DNA from: a virus
Taxonomy: Duplodnaviria > Heunggongvirae > Uroviricota > Caudoviricetes
Direction: 5' to 3' (one strand)
IMG/VR virus record: IMGVR_UViG_3300025117_000034
DNA length: 64,000 nt
A program made the position numbers and the translations under genes. This document shows, in pieces, positions 1-35,597 of the stretch (its first letter is position 1; the number at the start of each line of letters is the position of its first letter). A model generated the notes under the pieces. It was not told the origin of the DNA, did not search any database, and worked only from the letters and a program-made list of their open reading frames with translations.

Positions 1-457
1 GCTGGATAAGCTGACAGTGCCACCCCTGCCACATGAATGTTTCATTACCTCTCACAGGATGAGGCTCAAAGAAGGTCTCAAGGTTGGCATCAAAGCCCTC
101 CATACTCTCGAGACCACCCCGTAAACTCTTGTCCCATAAGTCCGCAAGTACACGTTCGTTGGCAATGAGACACGGCGCAACACTGCTACTTGCACGATTC
201 CTCCAATTGGTTGGCCGCTTCATCCAGTCATAGCGGAGGAATGCCATCTGTTCCAACCCACCTATGTGATCACCATGCAGATGGGAGATATAGATGTCAT
301 TGATATCATTGACAGAGATACCAGCCCTGTGCAATGCAGCAGGAGCCTGATACCCATAGTCAATGAGCATAGTCCTGCCGCACTCCTCCAGCATGAAACA
401 TTGGTTGAAGTTGACATTACTAAATGCGTTGCCACAGCCCAACACTGTTACTTTCAT
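1..457 (-). CDS. MBL-fold metallo-hydrolase (partial; C-terminus beyond window start)
   Basis: Own minus-strand translation from ATG ~457 gives MKVTVLGCGNAFS...ISHLHGDHIGG, with the HxHxDH metallo-beta-lactamase motif. AGGAG RBS 8 nt upstream. No stop before the window edge. Starts 4 nt after the JAB gene stop. Confidence 0.55.
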   Translation of the reverse strand, partial: MKVTVLGCGNAFSNVNFNQCFMLEECGRTMLIDYGYQAPAALHRAGISVNDINDIYISHLHGDHIGGLEQMAFLRYDWMKRPTNWRNRASSSVAPCLIANERVLADLWDKSLRGGLESMEGFDANLETFFEPHPVRGNETFMWQGWHCQLIQ

Positions 458-460
458 AGA

Positions 461-1660
461 TTACACTCCTGTGTGCTCATTAGGTGATTCAATATTTATG
501 TCCTTGTACACTGACGTGAACAGATCAACTGCATCAATGACATTAACGCACGTCCCGCAGTAGTGGCCACCAAGGCATTCCTTGCCCTCACCGCACATAG
601 GCAATGAACCTTCAAGGTTGTAAGCCTTGTAACCCTTGCTGTCAAAGATACTCTTGACCCAATCTGCGAGCTTGTTATTGTGCTTGCAGTCAAAGCAGTC
701 ATTCACACAACCTACGTTACAATTTGCGCAGAAGTGGATATCTGTTTCGGGGGGTGCACTTTCAGCAACCGTCCCGTCCATCGGGTATTCGTCGTCAAAG
801 TTTTCGACAACCGTAACATGCGGGTTAGCATTATCTCGAAAGTTCCCCCGCGTGACGCGGCTCCCCGTGAAAACGTCGTTGTCATACCCGTCCCAGTCAC
901 GCTGCCCATGATACCCAGCAAGAAGACTGCCTTGTGAAGGCGGGGTATACGGTGGGTAGTTGTATGTAGGCTTGACAATGCGCTCAATGTAGTCCGTGAC
1001 CACATCCTTGACCTGTGCATACTCAATGTTGACCTTGATATTCTTGTAGAGGAACTTGCCACAAGGAGTCATGGCCTTGGCAGTGGCAACATAGTTGATC
1101 TCACTGCCCTTCTTGGACAGGACAATGCTATAGTTATAGAGGTTGCGGCACTGCAGATCATCCTGGCCACTATGGAACGACCCCATATCATTGTGGCTAT
1201 GCACCACACCATTGAAACCAGACCCGTCACCATCCACGATTTCCACCATGGTCTTGGTAACTTTCTGCTTCGGGAAGTCCCACTCGGTAATAACACCAGC
1301 ATCATTGACGTTATAGATCATCAACCATTCGTCAGTGGGCAAACGATTCATAAGGTCAGCCCAGATTGCCCACAGCTCAGGAGGAACCACAAGGTCTTTC
1401 GGTGTGGTTGCCTCACTGCAGGCGGTGATACAGGCACTCTTGATACCCAGCGCATCCTTGATACTCTGTTTAGCAGGGTCAGCAACGGTAGTGGCAGCAG
1501 GCGGCATAAGAGAACTCTCCCTTCCAGTAGTGTTAGCAGGCTGTCTGAATCCAACAACACGGGGTGCCGGAGCAGGCGCACCTGCAGCTTTAATGTATTT
1601 CATGTTAGTCTCCACTCTCCTTTTTTCTAAAGCCTTCTTCCAGGCTTTTTTCCTTCCCAT
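461..1660 (-). CDS. JAB/MPN (JAMM) metalloprotease with C-terminal Cys-rich zinc-finger region
   Basis: Has E...HSH-x7-S-x2-D (MVEIV...VVHSHNDMGSFHSGQDD), an exact JAMM motif. C-terminal CxxC/CxxxC clusters. AAGGGG RBS. Follows the E1 gene by 12 nt. Confidence 0.8.
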   Translation of the reverse strand: MGRKKAWKKALEKRRVETNMKYIKAAGAPAPAPRVVGFRQPANTTGRESSLMPPAATTVADPAKQSIKDALGIKSACITACSEATTPKDLVVPPELWAIWADLMNRLPTDEWLMIYNVNDAGVITEWDFPKQKVTKTMVEIVDGDGSGFNGVVHSHNDMGSFHSGQDDLQCRNLYNYSIVLSKKGSEINYVATAKAMTPCGKFLYKNIKVNIEYAQVKDVVTDYIERIVKPTYNYPPYTPPSQGSLLAGYHGQRDWDGYDNDVFTGSRVTRGNFRDNANPHVTVVENFDDEYPMDGTVAESAPPETDIHFCANCNVGCVNDCFDCKHNNKLADWVKSIFDSKGYKAYNLEGSLPMCGEGKECLGGHYCGTCVNVIDAVDLFTSVYKDINIESPNEHTGV

Positions 1661-1671
1661 AAGTGCACCCC

Positions 1672-2775
1672 TTATTGGACGTTAACACCTGCAGCTTGGA
1701 ATTTCGGCTTGAGCAGCTCCATTGCCTGCTTGAGAGCATCCCACTTTTGCTGCTGGAAAATAGTGGTGGGCAAAGTATTGACCATCTCCTGACAGTCAAA
1801 GGAGGCAAATGCATGGATGATGGTAGTATTGGTTACGGAGTGTTCCGGCTCAGCATCAAGAAGACGAGCTCGGATTTCTTCGTCATACCTGCCACGAGCT
1901 AAACAGTCATGTATGTCATCATCCCAATTGCCTTCACGTATCAGATCAGAAACACTATCAGGTGAGTAGTACTCGCAGTTATCACAGTCGCCACGGTTAC
2001 AGTTGTCACAATCACCACGATGGCAATCATCACAATGACCGAGCTTCTTGTTCGCCATTACTTTGGCTTCGGCTTGCACCATGCAAGTATCCGTGAGACA
2101 ATCCTTGACAGCCTCCATAACGAAGTCGGTCACCATGGAACTGTTGCCCATGGCGAGCATGCGCATATCCTCAGTGAAGTTGACCTCACCAGCCATAACA
2201 CTGAACACCGCAAGGGATGCAGCGGTGGCGGCAGGGATTGACCACGACGGAGTAATGGTGTAACCGTTGGTCTCCTCATCAGAGAACGTGAACGGGAATG
2301 CACGGCTGACATTCAGAGTAATACCGTCGTACCCGCACCGCTGATACTGGATGTTATTCTGGCGGCACCACTTGTTAAGCAGCTGCTGTGACTTGACATT
2401 ATCCGTGCAACAGAAGATAACGCTGGCCTCATCAAGGATTGCCACGTTCTCATCAGTGATCTTTTCCTGGTAGCAGGAAACGCTGCAGTCAGGGCGAATC
2501 TTACGGATGAAATTGCGCAGCACCTCGGTCTTGAAACTCCCCACCGCACCTGATTCAAAGGGGAGGCGGTTCAGATTACTGGTCTCCAGCTTATCCATGT
2601 CGTACAATTCAAGGCTCGGGCACCCACTCATAGCCAGGAAGATTGCCACCCAGCTGCCAGTGCCACCGCAACCAACCACCACAGCCCTTGTCGGGACATT
2701 CAGAGGACGACCCAGAGCCGATTCAAGAGCAGTTTGACGTTCGTACAAAGCTCCTTCAACACGAGTAGTTTCCAT
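1672..2775 (-). CDS. E1-like adenylyltransferase (ThiF/MoeB/E1 superfamily) with C-terminal CxxC zinc motif
   Basis: VVVGCGGTGSWVAIFLAMSG...LYDMDKLETSNLNRLPF matches the ThiF Rossmann and D-x-D...SNLNRQ signature. C-terminal CDDCHRGDCDNCNRGDCDNC. Start moved to METTRV (GGAGG RBS) just after the upstream stop. Confidence 0.85.
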   Translation of the reverse strand: METTRVEGALYERQTALESALGRPLNVPTRAVVVGCGGTGSWVAIFLAMSGCPSLELYDMDKLETSNLNRLPFESGAVGSFKTEVLRNFIRKIRPDCSVSCYQEKITDENVAILDEASVIFCCTDNVKSQQLLNKWCRQNNIQYQRCGYDGITLNVSRAFPFTFSDEETNGYTITPSWSIPAATAASLAVFSVMAGEVNFTEDMRMLAMGNSSMVTDFVMEAVKDCLTDTCMVQAEAKVMANKKLGHCDDCHRGDCDNCNRGDCDNCEYYSPDSVSDLIREGNWDDDIHDCLARGRYDEEIRARLLDAEPEHSVTNTTIIHAFASFDCQEMVNTLPTTIFQQQKWDALKQAMELLKPKFQAAGVNVQ

Positions 2776-2779
2776 TATA

Positions 2780-3535
2780 CTATGTAACCTCCCCTTCTTT
2801 CTTGGTTTCTTTCTTATCAACCTTACCGAAGAACTCCTCAACACCAGTGGTCAGCTTGATGATACCCTTCTCTGCCAGATCATTGATGTTGCGCATCCCA
2901 CCATGAGTTCCAGGGCCAATGATCTTCTCAAAGGAAGGGAGCTTAAGCAGGTTATAGCTGCCACCAAGAGAAGACATATTGATTGTCTTGAGCATGCTAC
3001 GAACTTTCTTGCTGCGCTCCACTATGTCAGCATAGCTCTTGGGAGCAGGACGAATATAGGAGCTGAGTTCACCCACGCACAGAAGCTTTTCTGAGGAGTC
3101 ACCATCCCTGTCACGGACACCAAAGTTGTTGTGGAAGTGCGAGCCGACATAAGGCCACTGGGTGAAGTAGACATACTCACCGTTCGGTTCATACACTGCA
3201 CCAATGTACCCATTGAATACTGCAGGCTCAACCATCTTCCAACGCTTGCCATAGCTGTCCAGGATATACTCAATGCGAAGTTCACCTGTGTAGCCAACAA
3301 CGCACATGTAGTTACCCTTGTAGAAACGCACAGGGATCTCAGGACTGTTAATAACTGAGGGCATATTAAACTTTGACTTGCGCAGCTCCCGCATAGCCGC
3401 ATTGATCTGCTCCAGCTTGCCTTTAAATAAACGAGCTAATGAGGGAATGGGTACAGGCTTGTCCATTTCCTTGAATACTTCGACTGTCATGGTCTGCGGA
3501 GAACCATCAGCGGTGTCTTCCTCTTCGTCAGCCAT
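2780..3535 (-). CDS. hypothetical protein; candidate E2/UBC-like fold (HxHNN...LLC)
   Basis: N-terminal helix, then a beta-rich core, then SHFHNNFG...EKLLCVGEL resembling UBC HPN...ICLDIL with a longer insert. Sits between the MIB/HERC2 and E1 genes. Start chosen at MADEEED (GGAGG RBS). Confidence 0.4.
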   Translation of the reverse strand: MADEEEDTADGSPQTMTVEVFKEMDKPVPIPSLARLFKGKLEQINAAMRELRKSKFNMPSVINSPEIPVRFYKGNYMCVVGYTGELRIEYILDSYGKRWKMVEPAVFNGYIGAVYEPNGEYVYFTQWPYVGSHFHNNFGVRDRDGDSSEKLLCVGELSSYIRPAPKSYADIVERSKKVRSMLKTINMSSLGGSYNLLKLPSFEKIIGPGTHGGMRNINDLAEKGIIKLTTGVEEFFGKVDKKETKKEGEVT

Positions 3536-4610
3536 TGCCCTGACCTCCAACTCCATTTATTTCCCACACATGCTCAAACCTGAACTGACCCTGCAGCTGA
3601 GAATCCTTGTTAACACCATGAATAGCGGCAGATCTCTTGTCACGGAGCATAACCATGAATGTGTTGCACAGACCTGCAGACTTTGCCCCATTCATAAGAC
3701 GAACTAGCACTTCCCTGACACGCTTGTTCCCAAGGTCATACAACGGGACACCAAACGCTATGAGCATGACAGACTTGCCCTCACGGTAACGCTTGAATCC
3801 CTTGAGAGCTTTCTCCACCAGCTTTTTATGCTCTTTCTCAGCAGCTTCATTGGTTGAAATCACCTTGGAGTTGATAGCATCAGCAGCTTCCTTGCGCTTG
3901 GCTGCTATCTTTGCTGCATCGTGCTTGGTAACACAGCAGATATGCTTCTTAGCATCATTGTAGGCGTAGTAATAGCTGGCAGTATTGCCCCACATCACCT
4001 CAATGTTATAGATCGTTCCATCCTGTGAGGTGAAATTACGACCTACACCAATCACCCTGCCCTTGCCAGGCTTGCCATTGGTGAAATCCTGATTGCCATA
4101 GCTCCAGTCCCTGCCACGGCGAACCATCATACCAACCTTAAGCTCGGCAGGGTAGTCATCATCGGGAAGCTCAGGAGTTTCCTCCTTCTTTTCGACAGGC
4201 TTCGGTTCCTCCACAACAACGGCAGGAGCTGGGTCGTCATCAGCAAACGGATCAGGATCTTCCACTACTGCAGGTGCCGGAGTGACCAGCACAAAGTCCT
4301 GACGTTCACCACCATACAAGTAACTGTCAGTTCTGTCATTACTATCCCAACGGATTCTGTACCAACGTGAACCAGGGTAGTCTCTGTTGTCTCTTCCTAA
4401 CTCGATAATCTCACCGGCCTGCTCAACACCATGGTAATGATCCTGTGTACCCCATTGCCAGGTAAAACCACGACGAACACGGTCACCAACAGCAGGTACC
4501 CACGGTGTTGCAGCCGGTTCCTGCTGTTGAGCAGGGGCACTGTCAGCCACCGGAGGAGCCACTACTGCTGCCGGTACAGGTGCAGCTGCTGTCAAATCAC
4601 TTAGGCGCAT
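3528..4610 (-). CDS. tandem MIB/HERC2-domain protein with Ala/Pro-rich linker and unknown C-terminal domain
   Basis: Two copies of G.RVRRG..W.WG.QD..G....G.V...........Y...W (VGDRVRRGFTWQWGTQDHYHG... and VGMMVRRGRDWSYGNQDFTNG...) match the MIB/HERC2 consensus. Start MRLSDL with GGGAGGTGG RBS. Confidence 0.8.
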   Translation of the reverse strand: MRLSDLTAAAPVPAAVVAPPVADSAPAQQQEPAATPWVPAVGDRVRRGFTWQWGTQDHYHGVEQAGEIIELGRDNRDYPGSRWYRIRWDSNDRTDSYLYGGERQDFVLVTPAPAVVEDPDPFADDDPAPAVVVEEPKPVEKKEETPELPDDDYPAELKVGMMVRRGRDWSYGNQDFTNGKPGKGRVIGVGRNFTSQDGTIYNIEVMWGNTASYYYAYNDAKKHICCVTKHDAAKIAAKRKEAADAINSKVISTNEAAEKEHKKLVEKALKGFKRYREGKSVMLIAFGVPLYDLGNKRVREVLVRLMNGAKSAGLCNTFMVMLRDKRSAAIHGVNKDSQLQGQFRFEHVWEINGVGGQGNG

Positions 4611-4830
4611 CTTCCACCTCCCCACCATAGATACTCATTATCAAGCTCATTGAAACCTCAGCCCATCGTACAAAGTCAGGGAGGTAAATGTAACCACCCT
4701 TTATATCCTTGACCATATCCATACCCTCTTCGATATGATCGGCTATCTCATCAATTTCGTCATCATCAGGTGGGGCAGACTCAGCCGACACCAGCGGACT
4801 GGGCTTCCCGTTCAGTTGTGCCATATTCAT
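4597..4830 (-). CDS. small acidic hypothetical protein
   Basis: ORF track, 77 aa, D/E-rich. First gene of the colinear run feeding into the MIB/HERC2 operon. Confidence 0.5.
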   Translation of the reverse strand: MNMAQLNGKPSPLVSAESAPPDDDEIDEIADHIEEGMDMVKDIKGGYIYLPDFVRWAEVSMSLIMSIYGGEVEDAPK

Positions 4831-4846
4831 GATGTTTGGTTACCTC

Positions 4847-5086
4847 CTAGAAACTACCGAGTGTACTTTTAGCCATCGTGATAAGCTTGATGCCGAGTTC
4901 CATAAAGTGTTTGGCATCCTGTGTGGGATCACCAGTGTCAATGCTTTCAGCGAGCTCAATGATCTCGTCAAAAATGGCACCAATATCCTGAGTATCGTTG
5001 TCCTCCTCGTTGTCCTCCTCGTTACCGTCCTCGTCAATGTTCTCGTTGTAATTGCTATGCAGATCACTCAAGCGCATAATAGTCAT
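4847..5086 (-). CDS. small highly acidic hypothetical protein (MRLSDL N-terminus)
   Basis: ORF track. Start moved to MTIMRLSDL after an AGGAGG RBS. Shares the MRLSDL N-terminus with the MIB/HERC2 protein. Confidence 0.45.
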   Translation of the reverse strand: MTIMRLSDLHSNYNENIDEDGNEEDNEEDNDTQDIGAIFDEIIELAESIDTGDPTQDAKHFMELGIKLITMAKSTLGSF

Positions 5087-5317
5087 TGTGTTTCCTCCTG
5101 GGCTATGCCCTATTCCTTTGTCCACCATCCAGCTCTGTTCTCTTCAACCAAACCCACGGTAACTGTCTGACCTGTAACATCACATTGACCTGTCTGTAGA
5201 TTCAATGTTGCACTCGGCTTGCCACATGGGCACATATCCAAACCAGAGTGATTATAAGACCACCTGCTGTACTTGTCAACAGCGCACTCCTTAGTTGAGT
5301 GACTACACACTAACAAC

Positions 5318-5560
5318 CTAGGCTTGCTGTCCACTTGAATTTCCCTCCGCATTATTAAACACATGCTCATTGCCGAAGAAAGGAACACACAGCAACTGCT
5401 TAATGCCGTGACAATCCATGGGAATCTTGTTGCAATGAATCTTGTCATCTTTGTGCGGCTTGGCATGGGGACAGGATGCCCCCTTGTCCAGTGATGCACA
5501 GCCCTGCGGACTTATCCTTCCCTGACAAATGTACAGTTGTTCTTCAGCACCACTCACCAT
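5318..5560 (-). CDS. Cys-rich mini-protein, NMV(I/L)P family member (divergent)
   Basis: 80 aa, 8 Cys. C-terminal LLCVPFFGNEHVFNN resembles the family motif. Confidence 0.45.
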   Translation of the reverse strand: MVSGAEEQLYICQGRISPQGCASLDKGASCPHAKPHKDDKIHCNKIPMDCHGIKQLLCVPFFGNEHVFNNAEGNSSGQQA

Positions 5561-5810
5561 TTTGGTCTCCTTTGTTTTCAGGATCGTGTAACAACTTTGG
5601 AATTACCATGTTATCAGCATAGGGCAGACACTTGAAGAAAGGTGTTTTTCCACCAAGCTTTATGCCCCATGTACACATACCTGGTGTGTCACAATATGCA
5701 GTGCATACATGTGGAACTCTATGCCCACACCTTGCATTATGCGTTGGAGAGTGGACACAATGGCCCTGAGCTCTCCCGACACATACCATAAGCTTCTGCT
5801 CAGCATTCAA
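5544..5810 (-). CDS. Cys-rich mini-protein, NMV(I/L)P family
   Basis: 88 aa. C-terminal CLPYADNMVIPKLL. Confidence 0.55.
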   Translation of the reverse strand: MNAEQKLMVCVGRAQGHCVHSPTHNARCGHRVPHVCTAYCDTPGMCTWGIKLGGKTPFFKCLPYADNMVIPKLLHDPENKGDQNGEWC

Positions 5811-6043
5811 GGTTTGCCCACCTCCTTAGGCAGCACCATGTTATCAGCGCATGGTACACACACAGTTTTTACTATTGGCTCACTTACCCAACCACATATC
5901 TCCACATATGTGCACTCAGCACCCTGAAGCTTGTGAGGACCTCTGTGTACACATCGTATAGTATCTCCAAGTGTGGCCACTCCTTCTCTGCAATGCCCAG
6001 ACAACCATCCCGTGCACACATACCATTTAGTATCATCGCTCAA
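5807..6043 (-). CDS. Cys-rich mini-protein, NMV(I/L)P family
   Basis: 78 aa. C-terminal CVPCADNMVLPKEVGKP. ATGA-type junction with neighbours. Confidence 0.55.
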   Translation of the reverse strand: MSDDTKWYVCTGWLSGHCREGVATLGDTIRCVHRGPHKLQGAECTYVEICGWVSEPIVKTVCVPCADNMVLPKEVGKP

Positions 6044-6270
6044 CTATGACCACCCCCGTCCTTTGGAACTATGAAGTTATGTGGTGCATCTACCAAGTAA
6101 CGATCTCGTATAACAGATCGGTCACATAAAAGACTGTACCTCTTCCTGCCGTCAGGCTCTGTTATAGCTTGGGAAATGAATCCAGGATCTATCATTACTC
6201 TCCCACCACACTCTAAACATTTCTGGTCTATACCAAGCTGACCACACACTAAGTACTTTCCAATGACCAT
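6040..6270 (-). CDS. Cys-rich mini-protein (divergent, APHNFIVPKDGG)
   Basis: 76 aa, CxxC pairs. AGGAG RBS. Confidence 0.5.
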   Translation of the reverse strand: MVIGKYLVCGQLGIDQKCLECGGRVMIDPGFISQAITEPDGRKRYSLLCDRSVIRDRYLVDAPHNFIVPKDGGGHS

Positions 6271-6275
6271 AATAC

Positions 6276-6425
6276 CTAGCTCCTGAGTTCAACTTCAATG
6301 TCATCAAGGAGTTTCTGGACACTCTTGCAATACTCTTTCTTGATCTTCTGCTGCTTGTATAGTACCATGAGATCTTCAAGGAATAACCTCAGACGAATAA
6401 GCAGATCACGTGTTTGTGGTGTCAT
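6276..6425 (-). CDS. small ORF (~49 aa) below the track cutoff, ATGA-coupled
   Basis: Own translation MTPQTRDLLIRLRLFLEDLMVLYKQQKIKKEYCKSVQKLLDDIEVELRS. Its ATG overlaps the TGA of 6422..6685. Confidence 0.4.
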   Translation of the reverse strand: MTPQTRDLLIRLRLFLEDLMVLYKQQKIKKEYCKSVQKLLDDIEVELRS

Positions 6426-6685
6426 TTTAGAACCCCTTTCTCCTTAAGCCACTCACCTCTCATACCACCTTTTGGTATAACCATGTTATCATAGAACTGT
6501 ATCATTGGAACATATATTGGTTTAATAGAGCTATTGGTAAACCTCCAACAGGTGCGTTTGTCTCCAGGCTTAATAGACTTCCCAGCAAACCATATTGCAG
6601 GACGGGGTTGTGCGTATGAGCAGTTAGCACTTCTACAGTACTCACTTACATAGGCACAGATGTACGTTTCAGTACCGTGATACAT
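6422..6685 (-). CDS. Cys-rich mini-protein, NMV(I/L)P family
   Basis: 87 aa. MIQFYDNMVIPKGG. Confidence 0.55.
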   Translation of the reverse strand: MYHGTETYICAYVSEYCRSANCSYAQPRPAIWFAGKSIKPGDKRTCWRFTNSSIKPIYVPMIQFYDNMVIPKGGMRGEWLKEKGVLK

Positions 6686-6941
6686 CTATGTCCACCCCCT
6701 TGCTCTTGACCCAGTTAAAATAATGGTCACCCTCAGGTATAGCCATGTTGTCATAGTACTGGATAAGTGGAACTCTGAAATTCTTAATGTCACAACCACG
6801 TGTTTCACCAGGTTTAACACTGGTGCCCATGAACCAGTCTTCAGGCTTCTCTCTTGCGTATACACATACACCAGTGCTTTTACAATATTCACTTACATAG
6901 GCACAGATGAACCATTTAGTTTCTGATTCAGGATTAGGCAT
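6669..6941 (-). CDS. Cys-rich mini-protein, NMV(I/L)P family
   Basis: 90 aa. LIQYYDNMAIPEGDHY. Paralog of 6422..6685 (ICAYVSEYC shared). Confidence 0.55.
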   Translation of the reverse strand: MPNPESETKWFICAYVSEYCKSTGVCVYAREKPEDWFMGTSVKPGETRGCDIKNFRVPLIQYYDNMAIPEGDHYFNWVKSKGVDIDVSRY

Positions 6942-6998
6942 AGGTACTCCTTGATGATGTTGGGTGATTGGTGTAAACTACTGGGGTGAAAAGAGTTA

Positions 6999-7081
6999 TG
7001 GAGCGCACGACTGGGATCGAACCAGCATTTTCAGCTCCTGTTACGATTAACTGCTTAGAAGGCAGACTCGGCTACGTGCGC
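6999..7081 (-). tRNA. tRNA-like element with aberrant cloverleaf (possible tRNA-Arg TCT or pseudo-tRNA)
   Basis: RC gives a 7-bp acceptor stem GCGCACG/CGTGCGC, T-arm GCTGG-TTCGATC-CCAGT and an encoded CCA. The only anticodon-like hairpin is CTGC-CTTCTAA-GCAG (TCT). No D-arm can be formed. Confidence 0.45.
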
Positions 7082-7086
7082 GTTAT

Positions 7087-7551
7087 TCAAGACTTTAACC
7101 AGTGACGTATGGCATTATCAGAGACACCATATTTTCTACCTGTACCACAATATCCTAGTAATTCTACATCATTAAGCAGCATGGCAACAGAAGGTCTTTC
7201 AGCCCTTCTTTGTGATAGTCCCCAGCATTTAACGCTGCAGTACTTTTTGCTATCAATACCACAAACTGAACCACATACAGGACAAATAATAGTTTCTCTT
7301 CTAACCGGATTATGAAGTGCGCAGTGTTGGGAACTGCTGAGAACTTCTAGGTTGGCTCTAGAGTTATTTAGCTTATCTCCATCCTTGTGGTGTACGTGCT
7401 CATCTTTTCTAAGCCATCTCCCCAAGTACATCGAGGCAGCATGCCTATGATAGTACACTTTACCGTTACTAGACAAAGGGTGACCACTGTCCATAAAGTA
7501 CATGTACCCAGTACCAGTATCTAACCTTTGTTTTATGTCTTTATAATACAT
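7087..7551 (-). CDS. HNH homing endonuclease
   Basis: HHKDGDKLNNSRANLEVLSSSQHCALH is an HNH motif. Zn-binding CPVCG...C.VKC. Sits between two tRNA genes. Confidence 0.75.
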   Translation of the reverse strand: MYYKDIKQRLDTGTGYMYFMDSGHPLSSNGKVYYHRHAASMYLGRWLRKDEHVHHKDGDKLNNSRANLEVLSSSQHCALHNPVRRETIICPVCGSVCGIDSKKYCSVKCWGLSQRRAERPSVAMLLNDVELLGYCGTGRKYGVSDNAIRHWLKS

Positions 7552-7587
7552 GCTTATATTATACCATCAACAATGAACTATTTAAAG

Positions 7588-7663
7588 TGGTGGGCAAAGA
7601 CAGAATTGAACTGTCATTGACGACTTATGAGGACGCTGTTCTAAACCATTGAACTATTTGCCC
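7588..7663 (-). tRNA. tRNA-Met (anticodon CAT)
   Basis: RC: GGGCAAA-TA-GTTC-AATGGTTTA-GAAC-A-GCGTC-CTCATAA-GTCGT-CAAT-GACAG-TTCAATT-CTGTC-TTTGCCC-A-CCA. Full cloverleaf with one T-T mismatch in the anticodon stem. Confidence 0.65.
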
Positions 7664-7722
7664 TTAGAGAGGGGGCTGACCCTCGCTGGAGCCAGCCCCC
7701 AACACGTTACTACCTTACAGAA

Positions 7723-8226
7723 CTAGCCCAGGCAGATACCAGCCTTGACCGACTTGCGCACTTCAATCTCATGACCATTGAACACCGCCGGAAGGTCACC
7801 AACCTCGTCCACTTCCTCGCCATTCAGAATGATCGAGAACGAATCAACACCCTGCGAGGCAATGTCAGCCTTCAAGCGCGGCAGCACTTCGTCCGTCGGA
7901 AGAACGGTGATCTCACGGCCAAACAGCGTGTACGAAGTGCGGCTCGCAGCACCCGACAGATCACCCATGCTCATCTCCGCACCAGCCTTGACCGACTTGC
8001 GCACTTCGATGCTGTGGCCATTGAAGATAGCGGGCATATCCCCAACCTCATCAACTTCCTCGCCGTTCAGAACGATGCTGAAGCTGTCAACACCCGCAGC
8101 GGCAATGTCAGCCTTCAGGCGCGGCAGGACCTCATCCGACGGCTGCACCGTAACGTTGCGACCAAACAGCACATAGGTCGTCGTGTTCGTCGTGCCAGCC
8201 AGGTCCTGCATGTTCATGTTCGCCAT
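7723..8226 (-). CDS. tandem beta-grasp (ThiS/MoaD/ubiquitin-like) domain protein, 2 repeats each ending ...VRKSVKAG
   Basis: Two ~80-aa repeats (Y.LFGR..TV...DEVLPRLKADIA..GVDSFSI.LNGEEVDEVGD.PA.FNGH.IEVRKSVKAG). The beta-hairpin, helix, then LNGEEV...IEV...V.AG layout is like ThiS/MoaD. GAGGAG RBS. Confidence 0.5.
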   Translation of the reverse strand: MANMNMQDLAGTTNTTTYVLFGRNVTVQPSDEVLPRLKADIAAAGVDSFSIVLNGEEVDEVGDMPAIFNGHSIEVRKSVKAGAEMSMGDLSGAASRTSYTLFGREITVLPTDEVLPRLKADIASQGVDSFSIILNGEEVDEVGDLPAVFNGHEIEVRKSVKAGICLG

Positions 8227-8356
8227 GTAAATCTCTCCTCGTTACAACTAAGTTCTGCCACCAAGGGTAGCAGGTTTGAATCCTACATCTATAGCTTGTA
8301 ATGAACAGTTATATGTTACGTGCCATCCTACCCTCCCCCAGGACAGATACTACATA

Positions 8357-8575
8357 CTAGGCTTTACCTGTGTGACTAGGTTTTACTTCAACTTTGTGTA
8401 TACCAAATTCTCTGTTTAAAACTGAAGTACACTCAACTTCTACATCATCAACAAAGATATTAAATCCACGTCTATAGTCAATGGATGCTAAGTCACTAAG
8501 AATTCTCTCCCGTATTATTTCAGTTCTACCAACTGGGATAGTTTTACCGAGTATATAATAACTTGTCTTATCCAT
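8357..8575 (-). CDS. single beta-grasp (ThiS/MoaD-like) domain protein, paralog of the 7723..8226 repeats
   Basis: SYYILGKTIPVGRTEIIRERILSDLASIDYRRGFNIFVDDVEVE...HKVEVKPSHTGKA aligns with the repeat unit. Confidence 0.45.
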   Translation of the reverse strand: MDKTSYYILGKTIPVGRTEIIRERILSDLASIDYRRGFNIFVDDVEVECTSVLNREFGIHKVEVKPSHTGKA

Positions 8576-8676
8576 ATAGCACTAACCAGGAAAATTGGGG
8601 CAGCACAGGCAGACAAGAACACTGCCTTGATTTGCCCCGCATTGAGTGCAATCAAACGTTTCCATGTGGTCTCTCC

Positions 8677-9039
8677 TTATCCAAGATCTTTAAGTTTAAA
8701 ACTATTTGACCAAGGGTTCCACCCAACATCCAAGCTACTCTCAATTTTCCTTGCGTCCTCAACCAGTTTATCAATACGTTTAACACCAACTCCAGCTAAT
8801 TCCGCTAGCCTTCTCCAGTCAATCTCAATTTCCCTGCAACCCTCAACATCCATTACAATATAAGGCACTCCATCAGCCCACACATGCGTACAGTAATCAG
8901 GATTTTCAATGTAGTAGTCAATGGTAGTACGTTTGAACCTACCATCTCCGTCACTTCTCAGAAAAATGATTCTGGGATCGGGCTTAGCTTTGTAAGCCTC
9001 CCGTACTTTTTTTCTAAGGACAATATCAGTAGTGGCCAT
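8677..9039 (-). CDS. hypothetical protein
   Basis: ORF track. Start moved to MATTDIV (AAGGAGAG RBS) just after the nadE stop. Confidence 0.5.
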   Translation of the reverse strand: MATTDIVLRKKVREAYKAKPDPRIIFLRSDGDGRFKRTTIDYYIENPDYCTHVWADGVPYIVMDVEGCREIEIDWRRLAELAGVGVKRIDKLVEDARKIESSLDVGWNPWSNSFKLKDLG

Positions 9040-9050
9040 GTGGTCTCTCC

Positions 9051-9836
9051 TTAGAACAGGCGCAGGTAACAGCAAGGGTTATTGCGCTTGAAGTGAGTTG
9101 CTCTCCATCTCTTGATAATAATGTGATCCTTGTACTTCTCCGATCCATTCCAGATATGACTCTTCAGGATCTTATCCACCTCAGCGTAGCTCGATGCACC
9201 AAGCTGGTCAAGGTCGGAGTTGGTGATACCTAGTCCATCAGTAGGCACAGCTTTGATACATGCTTGCAGGGCACGTTTCTGTGCACGTGTCCCCTCATTG
9301 TCCACGATCCATTGGGCGAGCTGGTACACCTCAGTCTTCCAATAGTGCTGAATAGGTGCTATGTCGCCAACGTCCCCATGCAGAGTCCAGAAGCCAAGGA
9401 GATACTCAGTCAGGTTATCCGTGGACAGCACCGCCCCCTGGCATGAAAAGGCAGTGTTGTACAAGTGAATCATACGCACACGAGCCTTAACGTTACCTTT
9501 ACGAATTTTCTCGTTGGGTATATTCAACAAGGAAAGTTGGTGACTGCTAATTAACTCTACCTCGGAGTCAATCTCTGCTTCGAACCACCTATGAGAGTAC
9601 GTCCTACAAATGTCCCTGGCCCTCTTAAGCTCATCAGGTTTGTTAGACTTGGAAGGGAGTGAAACAAGAACCAAAGGAATACCAAGTTCCTTGTTGCAGA
9701 CATGGTAAGCAAGGGCTGCAACGAGTGCACTGTCCACACCACCACTTACACCGAGAACCAGAGACTTAAGCTGTGCCCCCTCAGTGTATCTCTTGAGCCA
9801 TGTACGTATCTTCTTCACCTCAGATTTGCAGTTCAC
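9051..9836 (-). CDS. nadE: NH3-dependent NAD+ synthetase
   Basis: SLVLGVSGGVDSALVAALA PP-loop, GNVKARVRM, TDNLTEYLLGFWTLHGDVGDIAPI and KT.VY align motif by motif with E. coli NadE. Confidence 0.9.
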   Translation of the reverse strand: MNCKSEVKKIRTWLKRYTEGAQLKSLVLGVSGGVDSALVAALAYHVCNKELGIPLVLVSLPSKSNKPDELKRARDICRTYSHRWFEAEIDSEVELISSHQLSLLNIPNEKIRKGNVKARVRMIHLYNTAFSCQGAVLSTDNLTEYLLGFWTLHGDVGDIAPIQHYWKTEVYQLAQWIVDNEGTRAQKRALQACIKAVPTDGLGITNSDLDQLGASSYAEVDKILKSHIWNGSEKYKDHIIIKRWRATHFKRNNPCCYLRLF

Positions 9837-11005
9837 ACAATCCTCCCGAACACTTGATTGAGATAGGCTAAGTAGCCATCATCCTCACACATCTGCTTGC
9901 CCTCGCTGTCACTCAGTTTGGCCACAGGTTGATACTGGCATTCCGTCATTTTTATAACACATTGCAGTGCAGGAACTCCCACATCATTGGTAAGGTTTGT
10001 ACCTATACCGAACGATGTCTTGATGTCATTACCAAACTTATTGTACAGATCAATAGCCTTGGGGATTGTCAGGCAATCCGAGAACACTGCACTCTTGGTC
10101 TTCGGGTCAATACCCATGTCCTTGTACCAACGGATCAGCTGCTCACACCAAGCATATGGATCACCACTGTCATGTCTGCATCCATCGTACAACTTGGCGA
10201 AGTACAGATCAAAGTCCTTGAGGAACGCCTTGAACCCAACAACGTCTGACAGGGCAATACCAAGATCACCACGGTACTCATCAACCCATTTCTGTAGCAT
10301 GAACTTCTGGGAATCAATGAGCCGAGGACCAAGTGCCTGACCAGCTTGGAGCCATTCATGTGCCATGGTTCCAATGGGTTTCACCCTGTGCTTCATTGCA
10401 AGGTACACATTGGATGTGCCAATGAACTTCTCAGGACATGTGCTGGCAAGGTGACCAACCACATAGTCCTGCCAGTACTTGCTGAACCTGCGCCGTGTAC
10501 CAAAGTCAGCGAACCTGAACCCTGTGGGAGCAAGGCATATATCACTGACTTTCTTGAGCAGTCGTACCTGACCCTCACCCCAGAGGATTGACTCATTCTG
10601 GGTGTGGTTGTAGTACACCTCATTGACAATGGAGAGGATGAGGGTCTCAAAGTAAATGGTCAGAAACCAGGGTCCCTCAATGGTTATACCGAGGTCCCCG
10701 TTGTCCAATGCTTTAACTGTGATGTACTTGGCATTGGGCTTGTACATCTCGAGGAAGTCAATGTAATCAGGCTTGAGGAACCTTATGGTTCGGAGGTACT
10801 CAATCTCCTGCCAATTGAACTTGAGCTCACACATCTGAATGATCTCGCTCTTGATCTCCTCAGCGAATCTGCCAAGCTCTGCCCCTGCTGTTCGGCATTT
10901 AAACTTGTACTTGACATGTGCCCCTGGGAACTGGTGAAACACAGCTTGTCCCATGCTTAATTTGTAACTGTCTAAATCTAGCAGACTTGTGATTATTCCT
11001 CCCAT
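9833..11005 (-). CDS. pncB: nicotinate phosphoribosyltransferase
   Basis: LLDLDSYKLSMGQAVFHQFPGAHVKYKFKCR matches LLDTDAYKLHMQQAVFH...EFRCR. FGTRRRFS, GTSNV..A and GTMAHEW are all conserved versus E. coli PncB. Confidence 0.9.
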   Translation of the reverse strand: MGGIITSLLDLDSYKLSMGQAVFHQFPGAHVKYKFKCRTAGAELGRFAEEIKSEIIQMCELKFNWQEIEYLRTIRFLKPDYIDFLEMYKPNAKYITVKALDNGDLGITIEGPWFLTIYFETLILSIVNEVYYNHTQNESILWGEGQVRLLKKVSDICLAPTGFRFADFGTRRRFSKYWQDYVVGHLASTCPEKFIGTSNVYLAMKHRVKPIGTMAHEWLQAGQALGPRLIDSQKFMLQKWVDEYRGDLGIALSDVVGFKAFLKDFDLYFAKLYDGCRHDSGDPYAWCEQLIRWYKDMGIDPKTKSAVFSDCLTIPKAIDLYNKFGNDIKTSFGIGTNLTNDVGVPALQCVIKMTECQYQPVAKLSDSEGKQMCEDDGYLAYLNQVFGRIV

Positions 11006-11670
11006 AGAACACGTCCGTCAAGGATAGGAGCAAGCCCTGTGATCTTGTCAATGAATCTGACGTTCTTGCCAGCAAAGCGTTTCTTGGTGTCCTCCACTGC
11101 TGTGTCACCAATACCCCTGCAGGCAGCGAGGTTGATGACCACACGGAAGCCAGCGGACACAAGCTGCTCAGAGGTGGTAGCCACGCAGTAATTAGTGGCA
11201 AGGCCCCCAACGATCACCAGCTTAATCCCCTTGCTGAACAGGAACTCAATGACCCCTGTGCTCAGCTTGTTGAACAGATCATGGAAGCATGCGCCGTACG
11301 GGTGGAGATTAGGCTCACAGCCCTTCCATACAAAAAAGTCGTACTCCGTAACATCAGGAAGACCATCCAGCAACTCACAGCCAGTGCTGCCTGTTACACA
11401 ATGGGACGGCCAGTGAATGTCCACATTGGGAAGACCAACAGGGGAAAACGGGGGGTGATCACCATCAGCGTTCCACATAGCCCAAGCAGGGTGGGCATCC
11501 TTGGAGCCAACGCGATAAGCAGCGAACAATGCCTGCTTGTTAAGTTCATTGACGATCTCAAGAGCCCCAGGGACAGGGAGCTCAGCAGGGCAGAGTTCAC
11601 TGAACCCCTTCTGAGCATCCACATCAAAGCTGGCAATGTATTTCTTGTCAATAGCCATATCTTGTGCCAC
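10993..11670 (-). CDS. pncA: nicotinamidase / isochorismatase-family hydrolase (PncA-like)
   Basis: FDVDAQKGF Asp, Lys, and catalytic Cys in ATNYCVATT, plus the isochorismatase fold pattern. Overlaps the pncB start. Confidence 0.75.
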   Translation of the reverse strand: MAQDMAIDKKYIASFDVDAQKGFSELCPAELPVPGALEIVNELNKQALFAAYRVGSKDAHPAWAMWNADGDHPPFSPVGLPNVDIHWPSHCVTGSTGCELLDGLPDVTEYDFFVWKGCEPNLHPYGACFHDLFNKLSTGVIEFLFSKGIKLVIVGGLATNYCVATTSEQLVSAGFRVVINLAACRGIGDTAVEDTKKRFAGKNVRFIDKITGLAPILDGRVLWEE

Positions 11671-13614: not shown

Positions 13615-14547
13615 TCATTTCAGTCCCTCCTCCACTTCCTCATTGAACTTAACCAGTCGCCTGTTGCAACCATACAGACACTTATCGCATTTCTCAGGCT
13701 TGTCAGTGTACACTTGATCCCTGTACAGATGCGAACAGGTGTACTCGTTGCCAGCAGTGCTCAGCACCCTCTCACTCATTGATATGTAGCATGTCCCAGC
13801 AGTGTTCTGTGGGAACCGAACACCTTGAATGATCCTTTGCTTGGCATCCAAAGTCTCCTTGATCAGTTCAAGTGATTCCCTGTCAAGTTCATTGTAAAGC
13901 TTGGGCATCACCTCATCAAAGAAGCAATCCACGTCCTCATCAGTCATCATGTAGACAGGGTTGGTGCCCTTGTACACAGAGAAGAACACTGCGTATGCCT
14001 TGTGGAATTCCCTGGCCGCAAACTGGGCAAACTCAACGGACTGCTTGTAGTTTGCCTTGCTCAGCGTGAAGGTAACGCTGACACCATTGTTAACCTCAAC
14101 TGCCTTCTTGATGTTACCAAGCACCCTGGCATGTGCACCAGGAACCCCCACTGTTTTATCCCAGGACTCTGCATCACAGCTATCAAGGGATACCTTGAGC
14201 CGTCCAACGTGCTCAGCTGGCGGCTCAATGAAAGCATTGGTGTTCAGGTTGAACCTGTACCGCTTGCTGTTCTCACGGATCAATGGATACAGCCATGGAA
14301 CCAGTGACGGCTCCCCTCCCGTGATGTGGAACAGGGCTGTGCTGCCATACTTTTCAAGGGCTTCCCTGAAGCGTTCCTCAGCCAGTGTTGTACAGGAGAT
14401 AGGATGCTTACAGTATCCGCACTTGAAGTTACACTTGTTAGTGATGAACACTGCCACCCTGCGGACAGGTGGGTTTTGCCCAGACTTCAGTGCTGCCACT
14501 GTTTCCTTAACTCGTCGTTCAAAGTCATCCCAATACAAGGAAGACAT
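13615..14547 (-). CDS. radical SAM enzyme, MoaA/viperin-like (CNFKCGYC, ITGGEPSL, C-terminal CxxC..C)
   Basis: ITNKCNFKCGYC matches MoaA ITDVCNFRCTYC and viperin CNYKCGFC. HITGGEPSL matches LTGGEPSL. NLNTNAF. C-terminal CDKCLYGCNRRLV resembles MoaA CATCNRLRV. Confidence 0.75.
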   Translation of the reverse strand: MSSLYWDDFERRVKETVAALKSGQNPPVRRVAVFITNKCNFKCGYCKHPISCTTLAEERFREALEKYGSTALFHITGGEPSLVPWLYPLIRENSKRYRFNLNTNAFIEPPAEHVGRLKVSLDSCDAESWDKTVGVPGAHARVLGNIKKAVEVNNGVSVTFTLSKANYKQSVEFAQFAAREFHKAYAVFFSVYKGTNPVYMMTDEDVDCFFDEVMPKLYNELDRESLELIKETLDAKQRIIQGVRFPQNTAGTCYISMSERVLSTAGNEYTCSHLYRDQVYTDKPEKCDKCLYGCNRRLVKFNEEVEEGLK

Positions 14548-35529: not shown

Positions 35530-35597
35530 GTCCGTCTCCTTTCCTCTATGATTATATTATACTACAGTTGTTTATAAATGTCAAGCTGAATTACTAA

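Follow-up and report, generated by a model that had tools for sequence, protein, structure and literature searches.

Gene string and upstream region

Five closely packed minus-strand genes occupy positions 1-4610 of the viral DNA analysed here, a stretch of 64,000 nucleotides referred to as the window (IMG/VR record IMGVR_UViG_3300025117_000034). The initial annotation had described an operon-like string of five genes in this region, and all five are present at the positions it gave. They encode a MIB/HERC2 protein (3528-4610/4628), a divergent E2-like protein of 258 residues (2780-3556), a compact MoeB/ThiF-type E1 (1672-2775), a JAMM/JAB metallopeptidase (461-1660), and the N-terminal 152 residues of an Apyc1-family MBL protein (1-457). 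The first two genes overlap by 29 nt, and the remaining gaps are 4, 11, and 3 nt. Our searches turned up neither an account of such a MIB/HERC2-led operon nor a counterpart among 50,697 phage records or in IMG/VR, in line with the novelty claimed for it at the outset.

Upstream of the string, the minus strand carries a sigma-70 consensus promoter at 5251..5279 (TTGACA-17-TATAAT), matching at 12/12 positions; the exact consensus occurs only twice in the 64 kb, with 0.01 occurrences expected from shuffles. Two acidic minus-strand ORFs follow. The very acidic 93-aa ORF at 4847..5128, a JGI gene call with no match in Pfam, may open the transcription unit, and the 77-aa ORF at 4597..4830 overlaps the start of the MIB/HERC2 gene and has no match in Pfam, PHROG, or PADLOC. 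The element itself is a phage. Its head module encodes a capsid protein of the Gp23 type together with a T4-type portal and an S77 prohead protease; the label "T4-like" fits this module only, with identity to any isolate of about 27%.

Encoded proteins and candidate modifiers

The Pfam scan matched MIB_HERC2 (PF06701) in two stretches of the first protein with 52 bits (gathering cut-off 33.5), bearing out the two domains reported initially. They lie at about residues 48-106 and 165-230, are joined by an acidic/Pro-rich linker, and precede an uncharacterised C-terminal domain; the protein aligns to both MIB/HERC2 domains of MIB1 (PDB 4xi6). We propose that it is an E3-like substrate adaptor, a role in the pathway that we infer only from its translational coupling to the E2-like gene.

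The 258-residue protein had been read as UBC-like with an HxHNN...C motif. The first histidine (H140) and the cysteine (C160) of this motif are invariant in 17/17 sequences of the family alignment, but the second histidine and the two asparagines belong to an insertion specific to the window. Weak fold evidence and the gene position suggest that the protein is an E2, and we propose it as the thioester carrier; a link to E2s was recovered neither by Pfam (E up to 10), nor by PDB profile search, nor by hhalign against four canonical E2s.

The E1 consists of one adenylation domain, matching the Pfam ThiF profile with E = 1.9e-30 as expected for the ThiF/MoeB-type enzyme originally proposed, and a Cys-rich C-terminal extension. 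Its top PDB matches are TcdA, MoeB, ThiF, MccB, and UBA3, and it shares 40-44% identity with the E1s of related loci. The ATG at 2775 is the start called by JGI and agrees with the relatives; the GTG at 2844, listed earlier as the start, is probably overlong. R13-Q14, GxGGxG, D59, SNLNR, and CCTD are invariant (15/15) and K82 is kept in 14/15; the adenylation site is intact. The G-Y..TPSW loop contains no cysteine, and C248 is invariant. The CxxC zinc module of the initial annotation comes down to one conserved C-terminal CxxC-type site, with no conserved cysteine in the crossover loop.

The JAMM motif of the fourth protein (H154-x-H156-x7-S164-x2-D167) and E111 are invariant in 7/7 distinct family members. 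The identification as a JAMM metalloprotease holds on its catalytic residues, although the Pfam Prok-JAB score of 21.8 bits falls below the cut-off of 25; JAB homologues in related loci have precomputed Prok-JAB matches. The C-terminal module is Cys-rich and zinc-ribbon-like. We propose this peptidase as both maturase of the Ubl precursors and deconjugase.

The MBL gene starts 3 nt past the JAB stop codon and is cut by the window start; the complete protein of 292 aa is found in L002. It carries a SHLHGDH motif and matches Anti-Pycsar_Apyc1 with 67 bits (Pfam cut-off 50), and by this profile match it is a member of the Apyc1 anti-Pycsar family. Apyc1 is an anti-Pycsar phosphodiesterase (Hobbs et al. 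2022, PMC9117128). The HxHxDH hydrolase of the original five-gene system is real, but because the gene is missing from all 20 related operons described below, it is better read as a separate gene, probably for a counter-defence enzyme co-transcribed with the others.

Small genes that the initial annotation had missed supply candidate ubiquitin-like (Ubl) modifiers, with a putative beta-grasp fold. The minus-strand gene at 7723..8226 encodes a two-unit precursor, in which a direct repeat of 243 nt x 2 (72% identity) places two units head to tail, each ending ...EVRKSVKAG. A second two-unit gene lies immediately past the window start. The single-unit paralogue of 72 aa at 8357..8575 (minus strand) ends ...SHTG-KA in the Ubl family alignment, and tblastn with it matched the Ubl genes of the related loci L011, L012, and L019. 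The units end in K-A/P-G plus a short tail: the terminal glycine is kept in all aligned units, and after it comes either the next unit or a short tail that varies. Between the enzyme genes and the Ubl genes within the window lie 3 kb with six small genes, an HNH endonuclease gene, and a gene for a tRNA.

The order Ubl, E2-like, E1, JAB recurs in 20 other loci, as far as each contig extends, with homologous single-unit genes directly upstream of the E2-like gene. All these loci come from uncultured bacteria, and their readable flanks are integrative or conjugative elements, often with anti-restriction genes beside the module. The neighbours include ArdA (107 bits), RadC, SSB, DUF932, PC4, and integrases, and two relatives adjoin restriction-modification and Abi genes. 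None of the 20 contains a MIB/HERC2 gene. The core is not phage-specific but a four-gene family of integrative and conjugative elements. We found no description of such a core, which would comprise, as judged from sequence, a Ubl precursor, a Cys-containing E2-like protein, a MoeB/ThiF-type E1, and a JAMM peptidase tailed by a zinc-ribbon-like module.

Possible pathway and competing explanations

We slightly favour the interpretation that the region is a complete Ubl-conjugation cassette of a large T4-type phage, which might modify host proteins early in infection for counter-defence or takeover. The grounds for conjugation are the gene string with its translational coupling, the MIB_HERC2 and ThiF matches above the Pfam cut-offs, the invariance of the E1 adenylation motifs, the JAMM catalytic residues, and H140/C160 of the E2-like protein, the terminal glycine of the Ubl units, the gene order held in 20 loci, the absence of sulfur-transfer or thiamine/Moco genes from any flank examined, and the perfect sigma-70 promoter. 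Several observations count against it. The MIB/HERC2 and MBL genes are missing from all 20 related operons, and in another phage the MIB/HERC2 domain is fused to an AAA ATPase without Ubl context. No sequence method ties the 258-residue protein to E2s, and the E1 lacks a conserved crossover-loop cysteine. The Ubl genes are distant from the enzyme genes, and their beta-grasp fold is putative.

In such a pathway, the JAMM peptidase would cut the Ubl precursors after K-A/P-G, freeing tails of 1-4 residues and perhaps splitting the fused units. The E1 would then adenylate the exposed C-terminal glycine, and the Ubl would pass to Cys160 of the E2-like protein, either from the adenylate directly or via the invariant C-terminal cysteine of the E1; we allow for both routes because of the missing loop cysteine. 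Finally, the Ubl would be attached to lysines of target proteins, a step that the JAMM enzyme may reverse. To this core, the phage would have added two two-unit modifier genes and one single-unit gene, the two-domain MIB/HERC2 protein, which might select substrates like an E3, a putative cyclic-nucleotide phosphodiesterase of the Apyc1 family directly downstream, and a consensus host-type promoter upstream.

Most likely, the cassette serves to modify proteins of the host, probably immune ones, at an early stage, for counter-defence or host takeover. This reading is suggested by the Apyc1-family gene adjacent to JAB, by NAD-salvage genes 5 kb upstream, and by the location of the relatives on integrative/conjugative elements near ArdA, RadC, SSB, DUF932, PC4, and integrases. 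The cassette could act for or against immunity, since defence systems too travel on mobile elements, and restriction-modification and Abi genes lie next to two of the relatives. Defence or superinfection exclusion by the phage or an integrative element, with Bil-like tagging that would keep structural proteins of rival phages or incoming elements from assembling, is nevertheless an unlikely explanation. It would agree with the roles in anti-phage immunity of every bacterial Ubl/E1/E2/JAB operon yet characterised (Bil, type II CBASS, 6A-MBL, and probably Bub), with an order of E2, E1, JAB, and MBL mirroring validated 6A-MBL and operon type 6a of Iyer et al. 2006, with the same two relatives, and with a two-unit Ubl reminiscent of ISG15-like BilA. 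However, the phage neighbours are of the counter-defence type (Apyc1 family, NAD salvage) and not defence genes, several relatives adjoin anti-restriction/establishment genes, and only the E1 adenylation domain matches any PADLOC defence model, the NCBIfam 6A-MBL model reaching 39.8 bits against a cut-off of 320.

JAMM trimming of sulfur-carrier precursors is established in pathways of the CysO/Mec+ type. The E1, JAB, and small proteins might serve as sulfur-carrier or C-terminal activation components, as in systems of the ThiS/MoaD/CysO/TtuB or MccB type, yielding a thiocarboxylate or adenylated peptide with which a cofactor, a nucleic acid, or a small molecule would be modified; the 258-residue protein would then be no E2. 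Such trimming (Iyer 2006) speaks for this explanation, as do the best E1 matches to TcdA, MoeB, ThiF, and MccB rather than Cap2 or Bub, the E1 loop without cysteine, and the missing sequence evidence for an E2. We regard it as improbable: rhodanese, cysteine desulfurase, ThiG/ThiH, MoaE, PP-loop thiolase, and MccB-type peptide clamp genes are all absent from the window and the related flanks examined, and a modifier multiplied and fused in tandem like polyubiquitin would have no obvious use as a catalytic sulfur carrier. Still less probable, in our view, is action on phage proteins, with a Ubl step in virion assembly or maturation like that of lambda TAPI/TAPK. Bil does show an effect on assembly when tail proteins carry an attached Ubl, but the lambda system has neither E1 nor E2, and the same core occurs on conjugative/integrative elements whose examined flanks contain no virion genes. 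In addition, the head genes, at 48-54 kb, are more than 35 kb away from the cassette, which has auxiliary genes around it and a host-type consensus promoter in front, a setting that suggests early and not late expression.

Under the conjugation interpretation, a T4-type phage would possess an apparently full Ubl-tagging kit, the core of which is otherwise seen only on bacterial mobile elements, and would extend it by a MIB/HERC2 protein of eukaryotic type and an enzyme directed against immunity.

Comparison with known systems

A similar layout is that of Bil (BilABCD; operon type 6d of Iyer et al. 2006), likewise with four separate genes for Ubl, E2, JAB/JAMM, and E1 and a Ubl ending in glycine; the two-unit phage Ubl recalls the di-beta-grasp BilA. 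In contrast to Bil, the E1s of the window and related loci have a single adenylation domain (302-367 aa) without a conserved crossover-loop cysteine, no PADLOC, Pfam, or NCBIfam model connects Bil with the E2-like, JAB, or Ubl proteins, and the genes reside on a phage or integrative element instead of a chromosomal defence locus. 6A-MBL (type 6a of Iyer et al. 2006) shares the activity order with an MBL immediately downstream, but its three enzymes form one polypeptide without a separate Ubl, whereas three genes and dedicated Ubl genes are found here. The NCBIfam cap2_3 match covers the adenylation domain only, and the MBL of the window, of the Apyc1 family, is no part of the 20 core relatives. 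In Bub (6E/DUF6527), Ubl is fused to E2 and JAB to E1, or else E2 to E1; its E2s use serine rather than cysteine, and its operons include a serine protease of the DUF6527 type. The window, by contrast, has separate genes and an E2-like cysteine that is invariant, and no DUF6527 protein was found. Type II CBASS shares E1 and E2 activities and a JAB, and the E1 adenylation domain matches PADLOC Cap2-type models. Cap2, however, is an E2-E1 fusion acting on the C-terminus of a CD-NTase without a Ubl, whereas the window has dedicated Ubl genes and no CD-NTase or effector.

Among viruses, E1+JAB pairs already exist in crAss-like phages, which the initial annotation had overlooked. In cr106_1, an E1 about 28% identical over the adenylation domain adjoins a Prok-JAB protein as here; across six genes surrounding the pair, the Pfam scan recovered Prok-JAB and ThiF alone and thus no MIB/HERC2, and neither a Ubl nor a separate E2-like gene is annotated there. 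Asgard Nidhogg viruses also carry a ThiF/E1-like gene in a virus of prokaryotes, but the report of them contains only E1-like genes. Apyc1 is likewise a phage-encoded MBL fold with HxHxDH, and the window protein exceeds the family cut-off with a modest similarity of 67 bits; co-transcription with a Ubl cassette is undescribed for Apyc1. The eukaryotic E3 ligases MIB1 (Mind bomb) and HERC2 share the domain of the first protein, present in two copies as in the substrate-binding region of MIB1. The phage protein lacks ZZ, ankyrin, RING, and HECT domains, and its C-terminal 130 aa match nothing; in contrast to these ligases, it would rely for catalysis on a separate E2-like protein of bacterial type.

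Gene string and phage setting

Five co-oriented genes on the minus strand occupy positions 1–4628 of the window. In the direction of transcription, they encode a MIB/HERC2 protein of 360 or 366 aa (3528–4610 or 4628), a 258-aa E2-like protein (2780–3556), an E1 (1672–2775), a JAB protein of 399 aa (461–1660), and an MBL protein that starts at 457 and runs past the window start after its first 152 codons. The MIB/HERC2 and E2-like genes overlap by 29 nt, and the subsequent gaps are 4, 11, and 3 nt. An exact-sequence match places the window on a 139.6-kb contig of JGI metagenome 3300025009, and L002, a locus from this contig, completes the cut-off end with a complete 292-aa MBL gene, a 73-aa ORF, and one further gene. 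The element carrying the cassette is a phage. Its head genes at 48–54 kb encode a Gp23-type capsid protein (126 bits), a T4-type portal, and an S77 prohead protease. The capsid protein shares only about 27% identity with that of any isolate, and a megablast search of window 1–9000 against 50,697 phage records returned no matches.

A perfect TTGACA-17-TATAAT promoter lies at 5251–5279 on the minus strand. The promoter is followed by an unbroken string of a 93-aa acidic ORF, a 77-aa acidic ORF, and the MIB/HERC2, E2-like, E1, JAB, and MBL genes. Exact promoter matches occur twice in the 64-kb window versus 0.01 expected; the second perfect TTGACA-N17-TATAAT promoter is found at 35556–35584 (minus strand), and there is no third. 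Such a consensus host-type promoter suggests that the gene string might be expressed early. The two highly acidic small ORFs (4597–5128, minus strand), located between the promoter and the MIB/HERC2 gene, resemble DNA-mimic anti-restriction proteins in composition only.

Several other minus-strand genes surround this string. Six successive Cys-rich paralogous ORFs of 76–90 aa (5318–6941) lie between the putative ubiquitin-like modifier (Ubl) genes and the promoter that precedes the enzyme genes. They have in common a C..G..C pattern in the N-terminal part and the motif DNM(V/A)IP(K/E) in the C-terminal part; a Pfam scan of the six gave no matches. An HNH endonuclease gene (HNH_3, 46 bits) and a tRNA-Met (CAT) at 7087–7663 separate the Ubl genes from the remaining cassette, and this stretch may have arisen when a homing endonuclease inserted into an ancestral operon and divided it. 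About 5 kb upstream of the cassette, three adjoining NAD-salvage genes (9051–11670) encode an NAD synthase (144 bits), a NAPRTase/Nampt-type phosphoribosyltransferase, and an isochorismatase-family (nicotinamidase-like) protein; no adenylyltransferase was identified. NAD reconstitution by phages is a form of counter-defence, and the trio may be such a set. Further auxiliary genes at 13615–14547 and 56469–58781 include those for a radical-SAM protein (310 aa) and a 770-aa double glycosyltransferase (phrog_2170).

Enzymes of the core and putative modifiers

The E1 matched Pfam ThiF with E = 1.9e-30 (106 bits) over a single stretch, residues 53–167 of its 390-aa form, and family members are 302–367 aa long. 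Its closest solved structures are TcdA, MoeB, ThiF, MccB, and UBA3, with Cap2 and BubCD far lower. The adenylation motifs, namely the N-terminal RQ, GxGxxG, the ribose Asp, the SNLxR Arg finger, and the TD-Asp, are invariant in all 15 distinct family sequences, with K82 kept in 14 of them, and align with E. coli MoeB. The ThiF/MoeB-type E1 proposed in the initial annotation is thereby borne out. The crossover-loop motif G171-Y172..T175-P176-S177-W178 is invariant and contains no Cys. A canonical thioester-forming Ubl-activating E1 would have a conserved catalytic Cys in this loop or in a Cys domain, and the protein does not qualify as one. The sole invariant Cys outside the core is C248, within a C-terminal G-x-C-x-D-C site.

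The catalytic set E111, H154, H156, S164, and D167 of the JAB protein (E...HxHx7Sx2D) is invariant in seven of seven sequences, and the C-terminal Cys cluster is conserved. The JAMM motif noted at the outset was thus upheld, whereas the profile match to Pfam Prok-JAB (21.8 bits) stayed below the cut-off of 25; homologues carry precomputed 'weak' Prok-JAB matches.

The E2-like protein was far more elusive. It had no match in Pfam, PHROG, PADLOC, or NCBIfam, and single-sequence, word-indexed searches of 5.8 billion proteins with it and with the two-unit Ubl gene product retrieved only the same phage. The family was opened up solely by an exhaustive phmmer run against 1.84 billion representatives, which found two distant relatives (E = 1e-5 and 4e-4). 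A later profile search extended it to 28 members, mostly 195-aa proteins from MAGs of Omnitrophota, Ignavibacteria, and similar lineages. The invariant residues are G138, H140, G146, C160, G162, N193, S196, and L197, with H140 and C160 retained in 17 of 17 sequences. In most members the His-to-Cys spacing is 12 versus 10 in UbcH5, and the Asn of the HPN motif is not conserved. Of the HxHNN...C motif first read from this sequence, the first His (H140) and the Cys (C160) are therefore family features, whereas the second His and the two Asn residues belong to an insertion specific to the window protein.

AlphaFold modelling with 28 sequences gave a mean pLDDT of 59 (core 75–85) and a pTM of 0.57, compared with a pLDDT of 35 when three sequences were used. 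In the model of mean pLDDT 59, the order of elements is a helix, a four-strand meander, a disordered loop bearing H140, C160 at a helix start, and more helices. The UBC-like topology suggested earlier may correspond to this order, a UBC/RWD-type fold comprising a helix, a four-strand meander, an active-site loop, and helices. All 28 members failed to match the UQ_con and Prok-E2 Pfam families at E up to 10, a PDB profile search with the family found nothing, hhalign against four canonical E2s gave a probability of 0.7%, and Foldseek of the 28-sequence model against PDB and BFVD found nothing at E ≤ 0.001. Because of the fold class, the invariant His/Cys pair, and the gene position, the 258-aa protein is probably a very divergent Cys-E2.

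The putative modifier genes within the window had not been located in the initial annotation. The gene at 7723–8226 encodes 167 aa in two head-to-tail 243-nt units with 72% DNA identity, both ending in ...EVRKSVKAG; this duplication was found by a direct-repeat search and missed by Tandem Repeats Finder. A 72-aa single-unit paralogue lies at 8357–8575, and a paralogous two-unit gene was found in L002 just past the window start, beyond the MBL gene and the 73-aa ORF. In every related locus, a homologous gene of 78–89 aa immediately precedes the E2-like gene. The 11 aligned units all close with K-A/P-G (or T-G), after which comes C, MLG, KA, RQ, ICLG, or the next unit. A terminal Gly with a short tail is the pattern expected of a peptidase-trimmed Ubl precursor. 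Pfam, PDB, and hhalign searches with the units gave no significant match (best DUF348, E = 0.085, and MoaD, E = 0.072), and hhalign against E. coli ThiS and MoaD gave no signal. We regard these 80-aa-class units as putative Ubl modifiers because of their size, terminus, and context.

Related loci, phage-specific genes, and possible role

The order Ubl, E2-like, E1, JAB recurs in 20 other loci (L003–L007 and L009–L022), as far as the contigs reach. Identities to the window proteins are 40–44% for E1, about 29–41% for Ubl, 29–42% for JAB, and 22–29% for the E2-like protein. These four genes make up a conserved core module that mobile elements carry, a setting seen in the loci with readable flanks. 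L011 lies in an ICE that also encodes a T4SS coupling protein, DUF932, PC4, TrbC, VirB4, and CTnDOT-type TraJ; L020 is flanked by a HerA/TrwB-like ATPase, ArdA (107 bits), and an integrase, L016 by a HerA-like ATPase and an integrase, L005 by a HerA-like ATPase and SSB, L006 by RadC, and L004 and L009 by restriction-modification and Abi genes. L006 (Woesearchaeota MAG) and L007 (Omnitrophota MAG) carry one and the same element: the 81-aa Ubl is identical in both, and RadC and the small ORFs are shared. Its presence in both an archaeal and a bacterial bin suggests a mobile element or virus, either mis-binned or shared. Beside the core of two unrelated loci lies a conserved protein of 121–123 aa ending in ...F(T)(I/F)M(M)(K)PEDY (L004 3965–4330; L005 7052–7423), with no Pfam match.

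The core family was not found among PLSDB plasmids, deposited phages, or IMG/VR. When IMG/VR was scanned with the E1, the MIB protein, and the E2-like profile, the only relative to emerge was one 24-residue E1 fragment; tblastn searches against phages with the MIB, JAB, two-unit Ubl, and a 195-aa E2-like relative, and against plasmids with the latter, gave no matches. None of the 20 related loci has MIB/HERC2, MBL, or either acidic ORF. The features specific to the phage are therefore the MIB/HERC2 protein, the MBL, Ubl genes that are both multiplied and fused, and the consensus host-type promoter.

The MIB/HERC2 protein matched Pfam PF06701 (MIB_HERC2) with 52 bits against a gathering cut-off of 33.5 in two stretches, both of which align with the MIB1 domains of PDB 4xi6, confirming the two domains recognized initially. 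Literature searches turned up no account of MIB/HERC2 from phages or prokaryotes, in line with the earlier remark that no description of a phage operon led by such a protein was known. A second, unrelated phage use of the domain is present in L008, an IMG/VR contig (UViG_3300046786_000471), where at 4961–7189 it is fused (33.7 bits) to an AAA_5 (MoxR/dynein-type) ATPase and followed by a DUF7192 protein; the domain by itself is not proof of ubiquitin chemistry. The full-length MBL matched Pfam PF23023 (Anti-Pycsar_Apyc1) with 67 bits (cut-off 50), and its HxHxDH metal site, present as SHLHGDH, was correctly read from the start. The Apyc1 family comprises phage cyclic-nucleotide phosphodiesterases that defeat Pycsar (PMC9117128), and we predict the same activity for this Apyc1-family enzyme. 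Given this family membership and the lack of an MBL gene in every relative, we do not consider the MBL an integral part of the conjugation pathway.

In the best-supported mechanism, which we infer, the JAMM protein would mature the Ubl precursors after K-A/P-G, and the E1 would adenylate the terminal Gly. The Ubl might then reach C160 in the E2-like protein, by direct transfer or by way of the C-terminal Cys of the E1, and be joined to target lysines, a modification that the JAMM protein may reverse. In the phage version, the MIB/HERC2 protein may select the targets.

For the role of the cassette, we favour counter-defence or host takeover, given the Apyc1-family and NAD-salvage genes nearby, a promoter of host-type consensus that suggests early expression, and the anti-restriction genes that adjoin the core in relatives. 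Its main rival is that mobile elements carry an exclusion system of the Bil or 6A-MBL kind, in keeping with the order E2, E1, JAB, MBL, which mirrors operon type 6a (Iyer et al. 2006), now validated as the 6A-MBL system. A ThiS/MoaD-type sulfur-carrier role, a context raised early as a possible objection, would call for partners such as ThiG/ThiH, MoaE, rhodanese, or cysteine desulfurase. It is unlikely because no partner gene was found in any flank examined, among the Pfam-scanned or precomputed neighbours in the window, L002, L004, L005, L006, L009, L011, L016, and L020. Within the counter-defence or takeover reading, the most far-reaching proposal is that a tailed phage encodes a complete E1/E2/adaptor cascade with its own polyubiquitin-like modifiers and tags and disables host immune proteins early in infection, the MIB/HERC2 protein being the substrate-selecting E3-like part. 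This proposal is tentative and, in our judgement, rather unlikely. The proteins are small and expressible, and the claim is therefore directly testable.

If true, the phage would be the first virus of prokaryotes to encode a Ubl-conjugation pathway in full. A substrate-recognition domain that has hitherto been studied in eukaryotic E3 ligases would also gain a prokaryotic or viral context, and the core on conjugative elements would constitute a new class of anti-defence or establishment system. An active cassette would show that bacterial viruses use ubiquitin-like tagging on their hosts, as eukaryotic viruses do. It would also offer a fourth, compact enzyme architecture for studying E1-to-E2 transfer without a crossover-loop cysteine, and MIB/HERC2 beside a bacterial-type E2 would bear on the origin of eukaryotic E3 substrate-binding modules.

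Comparison with known conjugation systems

Every prokaryotic operon for Ubl conjugation that has been characterised (Bil, type II CBASS, 6A-MBL, and probably Bub) is read as a host anti-phage weapon. The present cassette stands on the opposite side, borne by a phage and, in relatives, by integrative/conjugative elements beside anti-restriction genes. Membership in Bil, Bub, type II CBASS, 6A-MBL, or PRTRC was rejected on one defining feature of each. Unlike the E1 of type I or II Bil, the E1 here has a single ThiF stretch within 302–367 aa and no invariant crossover-loop Cys. Bub (6E) has a DUF6527 serine protease, Ubl-E2/JAB-E1 or E2-E1 fusions, and a Cys-less E2, whereas here the genes are separate, the E2-like Cys is invariant, and no scanned gene matched DUF6527. 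Type II CBASS combines a CD-NTase, a Cap2 E2-E1 fusion, and an effector; here the PADLOC matches cover the adenylation domain only, and neither the window flank nor L002 yielded a CD-NTase. The 6A-MBL system, similar in gene order, has a single cap2_3 polypeptide (E2-E1-JAB) in place of the three separate genes found here, and NCBIfam NF058523 (cap2_3) scored 39.8 bits against a cut-off of 320. With the PRTRC models (ParB-related, ThiF-related), the E1 scored 26.9 against a cut-off of 144.75 (PRTRC_ThiF) and a related JAB 17.8 against 101.8 (PRTRC_A).

Phage-borne E1-like genes are already known. Asgard 'Nidhogg' viruses have E1-like genes, and crAss-like phage cr106_1 (MT774378.1, L023 2303–4735) encodes adjoining Prok-JAB (28.9 bits) and ThiF proteins, the latter with an unassigned N-terminal extension of about 180 aa, perhaps an E2-like domain of the sort present in Cap2. 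In the cr106_1 record, the first gene is annotated as hypothetical with the note 'contains metalloprotease domain' and the ThiF gene as a hypothetical protein; the crAss001 and cr111_1 records call the homologous ThiF gene 'thiamine biosynthesis protein'. No phage with Ubl, E2-like, and MIB/HERC2 genes together, and no paper describing one, was found. The core constitutes a new compact family of Ubl-conjugation operons with a putative E2 and putative Ubl modifiers, and, as far as the searches reached, the cassette is the first case of its complete gene set in a phage.
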